Assembly: GCF_006345805.1 (NCBI RefSeq)
Contig: NC_043026.1
Location: forward strand, 6,882,001 to 6,946,000
Length of the DNA: 64,000 nt
Source: Octopus sinensis
Lineage: Eukaryota
Direction of reading: 5' to 3'
Of this stretch, positions 14,034 through 59,020 are shown in pieces (within the stretch, counting starts at the first letter, position 1; each line of letters begins with the position of its first letter). Position numbers and translations under genes: made by a program. The notes under the pieces are model-generated. The model made no database searches. It was not told the origin of the DNA and saw only the letters and a list, made by a program, of their open reading frames with translations.

Positions 14034-15351
14034 AATGATTCTACACGTCAGTGTGTATATAGCAATTAACTTTACACTAAGTGTATAAACAGCAAGTGAT
14101 GATACAGTATGTGTGTGTATAAGACAAATCACTTTACACTGTATGTATGTATGAACTCATATATGTCTGGTCATAGCATGTGTGTGTGTATGTGTGTGCA
14201 TATCAAGTGACTTTGTGGAGTGTTTATCTGTGTGCACAAAGTGACTTTATACCCCGTGAGTGTATATACACCCACACACACACATCTCTATACAGAATGG
14301 TCCTCTTGTGTATGAATGTCCAGGCAGACACTGACCTTTTTGTGTGGGAGAGCACAGTGTGTCTTTCATTGTGTAAATATGTTGCTGTGGTGTGTGTGTG
14401 TGTGTGTGGCTTCTCGGTATTTGTGAAGTGGGGTGTGACTGGCTTGGGCATAGACATAATTACTTTGTGTATTATAACATGTATATACATACATACATAT
14501 AGCCATGTATACGTGTGTATATATATATATGTATGTATATACATACATACATATAGCCATGTATGCGTGTGTATATATATATATGTATGTATATACATAC
14601 ATACATATAGCCATGTATGCGTGTGTATATATATATATGTATGTATTTACATACATATACATACACACACATATATATACATACATACCTATGCATATAT
14701 ATATATGTATATACATACATATACATACACACACACATATATATATATACATACCTATGTACATATATATACATACATATGTACATACAAATATTTGTAT
14801 ACATACATATACACACACACAAGCACACAATAAGTATGTGTACTTACATGAGCACATATACACATGCAAACATATACACACACACAAACATGTATATACA
14901 CATACATGCACATCTACATTCACACATATATATGCACACGCGCACACACACACACATTGATTTCAAGTTTTGACCCAAGGCCAGCAAGCATGGAGGAGGG
15001 GGGTAAGCCGATTACATCAACCCCCAGTGTCTGACTGGTACTTTATTGACCTCAAAAGAATGAAAGGCAAAGTCCACCTCGGCAGAATTTGAACTCGGAA
15101 CTAAGATGTTTGAAATTTCGCTACACTTTTTGCCTGGCATGCTAACGAATCAGCCAACTCGTCACCCCCTACACACACACATGCATACATTATCGATAAT
15201 TCACCTATCATTAGATGATAAACAAGGATTCCCACAGTTTCTTTGTTTACAGAGATTAAAAAGTTTGTTTTGCTCATAAGTTCACTTCCTCCATCAAATT
15301 GATGATGTTTGTACGTCAGAAGTTGGAATGGTCACAGAAGAACAAGAGACA

Positions 15352-15541
15352 ACAACAACATCAAAAAATACCTTAGGAATGAGAACCCAGGTTCAAAATT
15401 TCCCCAAGACACCTGATGAAGGCTGGAGGGTAGATCAGCCGAAACGTTGTGTTAACAACAAACAAGATGAGGACAAATGTCCGTCAAATGTAAATAATGT
15501 AAATAATGTACATAATTCCTCATCTCTTAAATATAGAACTG
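15352..15541 (+). mobile_element. Penelope-like pLTR-type element carrying the intact hammerhead
   Basis: Hammerhead followed by an AT-rich tail. Its first ~50 nt recur at 16097-16143. Confidence 0.55.
15408..15453 (+). ncRNA. Minimal type-I hammerhead ribozyme, core intact
   Basis: GACAC-CTGATGA-A-GGCTG-gagggtagat-CAGCC-GAA-ACGT-T-GTGTT. Stem I GACAC/GTGTT, stem II GGCTG/CAGCC, palindromic stem III ACGT, GUU cleavage triplet (cut after 15448). Confidence 0.8.
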
Positions 15542-15564
15542 AATAATAATAATAATAATAATAA

Positions 15565-16066
15565 GATTGGAAGTATCATCATGTACATTGTTTTGTCTTG
15601 GTATAAAAGATGGGCTACAGTAAATATTCTGCTCAAAACCACAGATTTGCTTGTCAGTTGTTTGACCATAACCAGTTGAGCATGTCCCTTAGTGGCTGAC
15701 GATATGTGCATCTCTGATCACGAGCAGAAGTAGTGGGGGAGCATCATAGCCATGTGTTGAGGGATTCTTTGGGGTTTGAATAGTTCACCTCTGGAAACAT
15801 GGGTATTTCGTTCAACATCCTTAAGCAACCCTTATTTAGGGACCTTTTGAGCAGGATGGACTACTCAACTTGAAGAAAATTCTAACTGGGCCCCACCTGT
15901 AAGGTCATGCGCTGTTTATCTTGATATGAGATCACCATGTCGCGCACATATGGTTGTGATGCATGTGCCTGGTGTACCCTTATCAGACGGGTAGTCATGA
16001 TGGGTATATTGGGCTTCGTATATTTTACCCAGTGTCACTTTGATGGCATGAACTGCTCTCTCACTC
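15565..16066 (+). mobile_element. ~500-bp non-coding element flanked on both sides by (TAA)n
   Basis: (TAA)n at 15542-15564 and 16067-16094 with a complex non-coding interior, consistent with a TAA-targeting retroelement UTR or non-autonomous derivative. Confidence 0.5.
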
Positions 16067-16786
16067 AATAATAATGATAATAATAATAATAATATCAACA
16101 ACATTGAAAAATACCTTAAAACCGAGAACCTAGGTTCAAAATTTGTGGTGGTCCAAATCCTGTACAATATTTAACCAATCGTAGCACAGGACTCACCCAA
16201 TGTTTACAACTCAATAGCTAAGATGAGCAATCATCATAATTTGATGCGTTGAGCCAATATCAGTTTAATGTATTCAATATGTCAGAATAGAAATTGGTTG
16301 CGCTACAGCATCTTCTGAAAGCCATGAACGGGTGGTATGCAGTCGACCAACACAAGCCCTCAATCCTGCTGAATTCTCAGCAAACAGGATCTAACTTGTA
16401 AAATTGACTAACATGGTCAAACATAGTGAACTGGTGGTCTTGAATCACACCAGTAACAGTTCACATCCCCCCCGTTTCTTAGTAGAGTTGTTGACTGGAC
16501 ACAAAATCCGGCCAATGGTGACCCATAGCCCTGCAAAGCATCCTTGGCCACCAGATGGAGGTACAGAATCAAAAGAAATGCCACTAAACATTATGTCCAA
16601 TGTATGAACAATTCTGGTTGAGATACAAGAAGCATCCAAAGCAGGCCGAAGCAGGCATTGGGGTCTGATGTGGTCCTACAATTCACCTGATCCCGTTTGA
16701 ACTACCCAACCCCAGCAAGCATGGGAAACAAAGAGATAATGACTAGGATGATGATACACACGGACACACACACAAGCATTTTTGAT

Positions 16787-35235: not shown

Positions 35236-35363
35236 TTGCTTTTGATCGAATCTCCTTTATGTATTGCTTGAAGCTTCCCCTTCTTTTTTTCTGTTGTCGT
35301 TTTACTAATAAATATGTAAGCTGTAACAAACAAAGAAATGAGATGAAGAAGAGATCAACCTAC

Positions 35364-35493
35364 CTAGTCTGGTACAAATGGTCACCATTAACATGCCAAT
35401 AGGACAGCTGTCATCAACTTTTAATGTCTTTATTATATCATCCAATGTCCGGACTTTTAATATGCGGTGTTTCATTTTGTATTCCACAAGGTC
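35364..35493 (-). CDS. TLN: Talin coding exon (F0/F1 junction, 130 nt)
   Basis: TTTTTTCAG|GAC CTT GTG GAA TAC...ACC AGA CTA G|GTAGGT gives DLVEYKMKHRILKVRTLDDIIKTLKVDDSCPIGMLMVTICTRL(G), matching talin DTMEYRKKQRPLKIRMLDGTVKTIMVDDSKTVTDMLMTICARIG. Its phase-0 acceptor joins the 49728 exon in frame (...RNG|DLVEY...). Confidence 0.95.
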
Positions 35494-40156: not shown

Positions 40157-40974
40157 GTGAGCAAAAAGAGAGAGAGAGAGATAAAAAAAAGCAAATTTGA
40201 GGATTTAACATTTGTAAATATTCCAACTCAAATAAGAACACGTGTTTGTACAGTGTGGATGTGTGTGTGTGTGTGTGAAGGATTTATAAATGAAAACAAT
40301 AACAAAAAAAAACAAAGAGCATTCGCAAAAAGGGGCCCATGACGGGATCACTGGAAAGTCTACGACAAAAGGGGTTATGACAAACCACAAACAATTTTTG
40401 ATGATGATGATGATGATGGTGATAGTGATGGTGATGATAGTGATGATGGTGATGGAGGTGGTGATGGTAGTGATGGTGGTGGTGATGGTGATGATAATGG
40501 TGTTGGTGGTGATGGTGAGGGTGGTGATGACGGTGGTGATGATGTGATGGTGGTGGTGATGATGGTGATGGTGGTGATGTAATTGTAGCTATGATGCTGA
40601 TAATAATAATAATGATGATGGTGTGAAGGTGATGGAGATCGTTGTGATATTGATATTGATATTGATGATGATGATGATAGTAATCCCAGTGGTGTGTGTG
40701 TGTATGTGTGTGGGGTGAGTTATTTTAGTGATGACAACTTTACAAAGGTCTGTGGCACAGCACGACACAACACAGGGAGGGTTATGACAGGATGCGATCA
40801 ATAGAGGGGACAAAGATCACCTGTAAAAAGGGGGCAGTGTACTGCTGCATTTGGGTCTTCTTCTGCAGCGACTGCGACCCCTTGCGGGCCTTTGGCTTTT
40901 TTGAACATCGCAAGAAACAGCAGGCAGAACAGGACATGGCGAAGAGGAGGCGACATCCAGCAGCGGTCAATGAT

Positions 40975-41520
40975 GGTAATCCGAAACGGTCAGGTAATCC
41001 AGAGAATTTTTTTCCAAATAAAAAGGGGCCACTACTAGCAGTAATTTAGTTCATGGGGTACATGACTGAAAGAAGGGGCAGTATTTGCAAGGGAATGCTA
41101 ATAGCAATGTCGGTAATCCGAAACGGTCACGTAATCCAGGGAATCTTTTTCCAAATAAAAAGGGGCCACTACTAGCAGTAATTTAGTTCATGGGGTACAT
41201 GACTGAAAGAAGGGGCAGTATTTGCAAGGGAATGCTAATAGCAATGTCGGTAATCCGAAACGGTCACGTAATCCAGGGAATTTTTTTCCAAATAAAAAGG
41301 GGCCACTACTAGCAGTAATTTAGTTCATGGGGTACATGACTGAAAGAAGGGGCAGTATTTGCAAGGGAATGCTAATAGCAATGTCGGTAATCCGAAATGG
41401 TCAGGTAATCCAGGGAATTTTTTTCCAAATAGAAAGGGGCCATTGCTAGCAGTAATTTAGTCCATGGGGCACGTGACTGAAAGAAGGTGCAGCATTTTTG
41501 CAAGGGAACACTAATAGCAG
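40975..41520. repeat. 137-bp tandem repeat, 4 copies
   Basis: GGTAATCCGAAA starts at 40975, 41112, 41249 and 41386. Copies 1-3 are nearly identical. Confidence 0.95.
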
Positions 41521-49727: not shown

Positions 49728-49825
49728 CCCATTTCTCAGCAGAAAATATTCTAAAGATTTGCTTGGTTCCAACCATGTGCCTTTTTTTGGATCATCGTCG
49801 GCCAGGAAGAGACCATATTCAGCAG
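49728..49825 (-). CDS. TLN: Talin coding exon (F0 subdomain, 98 nt)
   Basis: Minus strand reads TTTTTTGCAG|CT GCT GAA TAT GGT CTC TTC CTG GCC GAC GAT GAT CCA AAA AAA GGC ACA TGG TTG GAA...AGA AAT GGG|GTATGT. This gives AEYGLFLADDDPKKGTWLEPSKSLEYFLLRNG, matching the talin F0 motif (vertebrate SDFGLFLSDDDPKKGIWLEAGKALDYYMLRNG, recalled). Canonical AG/GT; phase 1 in, phase 0 out. Confidence 0.95.
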
Positions 49826-58985: not shown

Positions 58986-59020
58986 ATTTCACATTTCGAG
59001 CAGAGCTCTTCATCAGAAAT
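58986..59020 (-). ncRNA. Minimal hammerhead ribozyme motif, nearly intact (N17=G)
   Basis: Reverse complement is ATTT-CTGATGA-A-GAGC-tct-GCTC-GAA-ATGT-G-AAAT. Stem I ATTT/AAAT, stem II GAGC/GCTC. Confidence 0.7.

Follow-up and report, generated by a model that had tools for sequence, protein, structure and literature searches.

The window analysed here is a 64,000-nt stretch of the Octopus sinensis genome (contig NC_043026.1) that carries part of a talin gene on its minus strand. An exon for the F0 domain lies at 49728..49823 (-), identified by a phmmer match to PDB talin-1 (E 3e-10) that fixes the strand of the host gene, and a motif scan placed the exon for the start of F1 at approximately 35360..35480 (-), bounding the host intron; the next talin exon lies about 9 kb to the left of the window, also on the minus strand (L260). 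The plus-strand hammerhead that is the subject of this report, at 15408..15453, is therefore contained within an intron of about 44 kb, between the exons at about 35.4 kb and 9 kb to the left, and its description in an earlier note as antisense to talin is correct. The link between hammerhead and talin is positional only. A separate open frame with a CCxC motif, at 40735-41046 (+), resembles a fragment of another transposon protein and not talin.

The hammerhead lies in a 191-nt, 5'-truncated pLTR copy of a Penelope/Poseidon-type element at 15351..15541 (+), which has the full 3' tail but lacks the tRNA-like head. Over 194 nt the copy is 95.9% identical to the family majority, and it has the sharp 3' end common to the family. 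It includes the first codons of the element's ORF (15379..15541, +), starting from the sole in-frame ATG found, 34 nt before C3 of the ribozyme, with the frame crossing both ribozyme and tail. The tail proper, an optional terminal stretch of 25-45 nt bounded by the two sites at which reverse transcription can begin, occupies 15500..15541 (+; boundary approximate). An (AAT)n tract (15542..15564, +) joins the copy to a 3' fragment of another, non-PLE retroelement that itself ends in (AAT)n (15565..16066, +), with copies 88-96% identical at other loci, several of which abut the same pLTR. In one locus (L197) a frame that we take, from its motif, to be a restriction-like endonuclease lies upstream of a copy of this fragment, which is likely of Dong/R4 type. 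Such 3' ends were repeatedly observed in the AAT tract of the pLTR (15565-16066, +; L197, L253, L092, L213 and L202), and the pLTR thus supplies targets for a second retroelement. A second, head-to-tail pLTR fragment, consisting of AAT tract and body, follows at 16067..16144 (+), with 86% identity, and ends some 13 nt short of the hammerhead core. No target-site duplication of 7 nt or more was found at the window copy.

The hammerhead is a minimal type I ribozyme with a predicted cut after 15448, recognized by direct reading, a descriptor scan and fold prediction. Stem I pairs GACAC (15408-15412) with GUGUU (15449-15453), and is followed by CUGAUGA (15413-15419), an extra A (15420), stem II (GGCUG, 15421-15425, with CAGCC, 15436-15440), GAA (15441-15443), A15.1 (15444), U16.1 (15447) and U17 (15448). 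All of the core nucleotides listed in the earlier note were found by both direct reading and the scan, as were its bulged A after A9 and its loop-less stem III, formed by the palindrome ACGU at 15444-15447. Its two 5-bp stems are also present, with the refinement that stem I consists of four Watson-Crick pairs and a terminal G-U, and that stem II is extended by a sixth pair, G-U (15426/15435). The hammerhead of the window copy differs from the family majority at one position, in loop II, and U at position 17 is the norm in the family. The descriptor scan of both strands of the window gave two matches, of which only that at 15408-15453 has a 4-nt stem III. A decayed hammerhead of a second family, with a GAGC...GCTC stem II, is present at 58994-59016 (-); in L130, a GIY-YIG frame has this second family on its 3' side, some 90 nt ahead of a TA microsatellite. 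Rfam gave no hammerhead among seven matches up to E 10 for window positions 15360-15500, and the Rfam scans overall returned mostly microsatellite noise among the matches listed, with no hammerhead and one weak tRNA match below the cut-off (L005).

This hammerhead is of a known kind, and a member of the minimal hammerheads of Penelope-like elements (PLEs). As far as these are described in the part of the source considered here (PMC4209133), they share with the window family the absence of loop 3, the palindromic 15.2-16.2 sequence, the extra base between positions 9 and 10.1, the G10.1-C11.1 pair, the short stem I, and an occurrence in thousands of mostly solitary copies, and no difference is apparent in the ribozyme itself. 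The sequence at 15408-15453 combines a CUGANGA and GAAA...UH core, G10.1-C11.1, the extra base after A9 and a loop-less palindromic stem III, and it lies inside the pLTR of a PLE. The same portion of PMC4209133 does not name cephalopods, and in the part of PMC13282606 considered hammerheads are unmentioned. An exact pattern of core and stem II occurs 2,432 times in genome G000 and its reversed control not once, so that the hammerhead at 15408-15453 is not a chance resemblance; a looser core pattern occurs 4,151 times, against one occurrence of the control, and all 100 of its matches among those listed look like the family of the window hammerhead.

The earlier note had proposed that the ribozyme cleaves as a dimer and is the best candidate in the window for an active one. 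The anatomy and the idea of a dimer agree with the published PLE minimal hammerheads, of which monomers are inactive, and dimers and trimers weak, in the constructs reported in the part considered of PMC4209133. Activity in vivo, by contrast, is unsupported. In 91 copies selected through their ORF or A box, independently of the ribozyme, and compared at non-CpG positions, the core is mutated at 42 of 871 positions (4.8%) and the flank at 201 of 4,096 (4.9%), making cleavage by the window copy in vivo unlikely, since the core changes as fast as its surroundings. The core is intact in 41 of the 91, and three agree with the majority throughout core and stems. By this comparison the genomic copies are in neutral decay with no selection, and the intact core of the window copy is luck. 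Only one core variant is frequent (28%), and it falls on the free position 7, a hint of selection confined to source elements. Fold predictions point the same way: in the isolated 46-mer both stems fold and the inner pairs of stem I have a probability above 0.95, but stem I falls to 0.40 in 76 nt and 0.01 in the 191-nt context, where a downstream hairpin is predicted to capture the cleavage site. The predicted cofold of two 46-mers likewise prefers another structure (-28.1 versus -22.3 kcal/mol), and a potential partner, that is, a second hammerhead of the same family, was found neither within the window nor in the 100 kb to its left. In three unstranded RNA runs from organism B family sequence is abundant; read depth does not change abruptly at the cut site, ends do not accumulate there, and almost no reads cover the left flank unique to this locus. 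Being fragmented, unstranded and from another label, these reads are blind to ends, strand and locus and weigh neither for nor against activity.

An active ribozyme cleaving as a dimer, perhaps acting on talin via antisense RNA, is thus very improbable. In its favour are the intact core and stems, the few copies that still match the majority throughout, the folding of the isolated 46-mer, and the weak cleavage of dimeric schistosome minimal hammerhead constructs (PMC4209133, as far as consulted), from which weak cleavage by an engineered tandem dimer would also be plausible here. Such cutting in vitro would not show a function in vivo, and the absence of a nearby partner, the loss of stem I in context, the competing cofold and the lack of selection on the genomic copies are joined by the fact that the window copy lacks the putative promoter. 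From sequence and folding models, in vivo cleavage by the window copy is judged unlikely.

The identity of the element behind the hammerhead follows from its full-length unit, a 278-nt sequence consisting of a tRNA-derived segment of 74 nt, an AAT tract, a 45-nt body, the hammerhead, and about 93 nt to the end. A few hammerhead copies extend upstream into coding sequence. A search with this coding DNA gave 2,999 candidates, of which 40 were scored and 30 loci examined; 29 of these 30 run on into the unit, and they read as a reverse transcriptase (RT) followed by a GIY-YIG-type endonuclease. In 30 loci selected with the 5' end of the ORF, by a query that included 35 nt of the tail, the unit lies directly upstream in 18, with the hammerhead in 16 and beginning at the tRNA start in three. 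The full unit therefore stands both in front of and behind an 810-codon RT and GIY-YIG frame, overlapping its start, and is its pLTR. The majority sequence of 59 pieces yields a single open frame of 810 codons, and the start frame is kept in 10 of 11 ORF-linked 5' pLTRs, five of them with point stops. A homolog with 56% identity (P0003) has the same ribozyme-encoded peptide in frame; the predicted N-termini of homologs P0031, P0120 and P0003 read like hammerhead cores, in different frames, which suggests that ribozyme and ORF commonly overlap in this clade. Homologs number 1,444 below E 1e-40, with identities of 53-68% among the closest (P0001-P0009), and carry PF00078, PF28514 and PF26215, with PF01541 in a few; a Pfam scan of two ORF pieces gave no family, and the GIY-YIG assignment is a motif reading in the copies combined with the domains of homologs. 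Sampled copies diverge by 4.0-11.5% (median 5.8%), none of them is an intact element, and the family is dead.

A single ORF with RT and C-terminal GIY-YIG, and pLTRs on both sides overlapping the ORF start, are features of EN+ PLEs, and by its domain order, N-terminal motif and likeness to an Anolis element the octopus element is likely an EN+ PLE of Penelope/Poseidon type. GIY-YIG Pfam matches, considered as the partner of the hammerhead unit, led instead to other PLE families without the shared 3' end (20 loci and 20 larger stretches). A young PLE family (L051-L055, L059, L060 and L067) has copies 96-99% identical, in which a 479-aa ORF lies upstream of a 781-aa RT/GIY-YIG ORF and overlaps it, and the 3' UTR is repeated; the descriptor found no canonical hammerhead at its ends. 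Elsewhere, a head-to-tail pLTR copy lies within the ORF of another PLE, between residues 181 and 182 of a 781-aa match (L026, 1079-1661, oriented), an insertion at which the target duplication could be read cleanly, and six tandem 135-nt units with a weak tRNA-Cys at relaxed threshold lie downstream of a Poseidon-type copy (L281, 7175-7942). No relatives were found in metagenomes by a single-protein search, or in viral contigs by alignment.

The insertions bear the footprint of a PLE. Copies share the sharp 3' end without poly(A), and the 3' ends of the family lie 0-6 or mostly 23-45 nt from the end of the unit. An inverted copy is present upstream in 12 of 30 hammerhead-anchored loci, which include the duplicates L099/L100 and L013/L014, and the tail is on exactly one arm of the inverted pair in 12 of 12, 8 of 8 and 19 of 19 cases in three sets of loci, with two arms shorter still. 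Inverted 5'-truncated copies with a one-sided tail of 30-40 nt are thus found here, and inverted copies with a one-sided tail are described as a PLE footprint in the parts consulted of PMC8557442 and PMC3846280. A close parallel is the Poseidon of Anolis carolinensis (Frangieh et al. 2024, PMC11167929), in which, from the portion considered, reverse transcription begins at two internal sites that define the tail, and whose hammerhead, the sole Poseidon one tested, needs the element's own protein. As described there, the Anolis element resembles that of octopus in its pLTR-ORF-pLTR organization, a hammerhead over the ORF start whose cleavage site lies beyond the start codon, a tail delimited by two alternative positions of the 3' end, and the absence of RNA-seq ends at the cut site. 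It differs in that its cut lies 26 nt after the ATG, compared with 70 nt in octopus, where the ATG is 34 nt before the core; the octopus pLTR also opens with a tRNA-derived segment and AAT tract, and the octopus family is dead.

By analogy with Anolis, the octopus element's protein would have bound its RNA at the junction of pLTR and ORF, nicked AT-rich DNA and begun reverse transcription at one of the two internal sites. Synthesis running back from the 5' pLTR would leave solo pLTRs ending at the 5' end of the RNA or earlier, as in the window copy. Cleavage by the ribozyme, 70 nt past the ATG, would need a dimer or help from protein, and would part the start codon from the ORF. With a probability of roughly three in four, the hammerhead is best read as part of a decayed Penelope/Poseidon-type pLTR, present in the talin intron as a 191-nt, 5'-truncated insertion that likely does not cleave in the cell.

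The unusual part of the element is the head of the full-length pLTR. Its first 74 nt align end to end with tRNA genes of this genome, and best with tRNA-Arg(TCT) (50 of 79 columns, z 7), in a comparison with 27 tRNA sequences of six amino-acid types; the head scores 60, compared with at most 35 for any of the 73 windows that tile the element, and it contains A and B boxes at tRNA spacing, as tRNA-derived SINEs do. ARAGORN at default settings found no tRNA in the head, and at a relaxed score detected one in 5 of 30 heads versus 14 of 600 shuffles. Counts of 15-mers rise from 1,006 at -22 to -8 to 7,826 at +13 and 6,981 at +35, so that copy number climbs about 7-fold at the start of the head, while upstream and +13 15-mers are kept alike in PLE copies (12 and 13 of 30). 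The 5' starts peak at -7 and +1. The A-box loci supplied 31 heads: the start falls at -9 to +3 in 13, a palindrome at that point turns 10 back on themselves, four begin at +4 to +8, and four extend further upstream (by eye, 5 of 30 loci). L205, L210 and L223, all of them full-length, likewise open with the head.

One interpretation of these copies is an independent tRNA-headed SINE with a borrowed PLE tail, mobilized by PLE enzymes. The excess of head-bearing short copies over upstream-extending ones, about 7 to 1, would fit such an element, as would the solo pLTRs, which keep both boxes, have no T run and could have spread alone. However, the whole unit, head included, is found at both ends of the coding element, the hammerhead side is close by in 28 of 30 A-box loci, and no separate SINE body was found; moreover, internal initiation on the 5' pLTR, as described in the part of PMC11167929 considered, gives such copies without a separate element. 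A tRNA-derived SINE proper would be a separate, non-autonomous element sharing only its 3' tail with its partner, whereas this unit belongs to the coding element, and an independent SINE is accordingly unlikely. Solo pLTRs may, under the assignment of the unit to the coding element, also have been retroposed like SINEs. We take the octopus SINEs OR1 and OR2 to be tRNA-Arg-related, and OR2, presumably about 270 nt, comes close in length to the 278-nt unit; existing catalogues may already list the unit as a SINE.

Comparable combinations occur in other elements. The TRIMp3 elements Cassandra, Helenus and Ajax likewise have a small-RNA-derived sequence with A and B boxes in the terminal repeat (Kojima 2024, PMC10886601, in part). 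These are short non-coding LTR elements, with a primer-binding site and polypurine tract, while the octopus element is a PLE with an 810-codon ORF encoding RT and endonuclease, which places it outside that class and is unexpected under the argument of that paper. The schistosome Sm-alpha and Sj-alpha SINE-like elements are likewise short repeats in which a hammerhead lies downstream of a promoter, but, according to the portion of PMC6765202 considered, their hammerheads are canonical and they contain no ORF, in contrast to the octopus short unit, which forms the terminal repeat of a PLE that encodes protein.

Acting as an internal promoter of Pol III type, the A and B boxes of the tRNA-derived head would set where transcription starts, at least in the case of RNAs of pLTR length, and on the sequence evidence Pol III use for such RNAs is slightly favoured. 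A further indication comes from runs of at least four T, which are absent from the 2,745-nt sense-strand majority sequence (expected 2.6-4.1, P 0.012-0.054 depending on the type of shuffle). Observed over expected is 0.17 in 30 real copies versus 1.41 in 40 relatives, and the density is 0.37 per kb in the 30 copies versus a mean of 3.0 in 42 relatives of similar T content (about 8-fold), relatives having been drawn from a hand-picked list with no strict cut-off, from which 18 of 80, mostly short matches, were left out. Two of 62 relatives from other organisms have zero such runs in the matched ORF, and both have T runs in the 3' repeat; each of three long ORFs from other PLEs of the octopus genome contains 9-10 T runs. 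Runs of at least four G are mildly low (0.42), and C runs are undepleted. Because the copies share one ancestor, the absence of T runs is a single observation.

The alternative is that the tRNA-like segment is a passively captured SINE head, that Pol II transcribes the element from a TATAA, and that the missing T runs are chance, which is a serious possibility with somewhat less than an even chance of being right. Counted from the tRNA start, a TATAA occupies -34 to -30, at the stop codon of the ORF, a position suited to a start at -7, and TATA-like words precede the hammerheads of two relatives (L279 and L317). Since pLTR 5' palindromes are also known in Penelopes of A. vaga (PMC3846280, in part), the pile-up of starts does not need Pol III. 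The coding RNA must, in addition, be translated, which argues against Pol III, as a capped RNA is translated more easily, and Kojima 2024 (PMC10886601, in the part considered) holds that autonomous partners must use Pol II, Pol III being weakly processive. Set against Pol II are the coincidence of starts with the tRNA start, the A and B boxes at tRNA spacing, the full-length copies L205, L210 and L223, which begin at the head without TATAA, and the scarcity of T runs, about 8-fold relative to relatives, of which even the two without runs in the ORF have them in the 3' repeat. The broader proposal, that the coding Penelope/Poseidon element was transcribed end to end by Pol III from a captured tRNA-derived pLTR promoter, with a 2.9-kb sense strand purged of terminators and with solo pLTRs as a SINE born inside its parent, is speculative and, as judged from sequence, doubtful.

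The element behind the hammerhead thus poses a testable promoter question, of which the tRNA-derived start of the pLTR is the unusual part. To our knowledge, the promoters of PLEs have barely been mapped, and a literature search, with most subscription journals and Repbase outside its coverage, found no coding PLE whose promoter is tRNA-derived or of Pol III type. In the view set out in the part of PMC10886601 considered, SINEs rely on LINEs, while autonomous retroelements use Pol II. If true, a coding PLE with a tRNA-derived start would show by what route a SINE-like family can emerge as the terminal repeat of its own parent, and would raise, as with R2, the question of how translation proceeds on an RNA that lacks a cap and has its start codon covered by a ribozyme.
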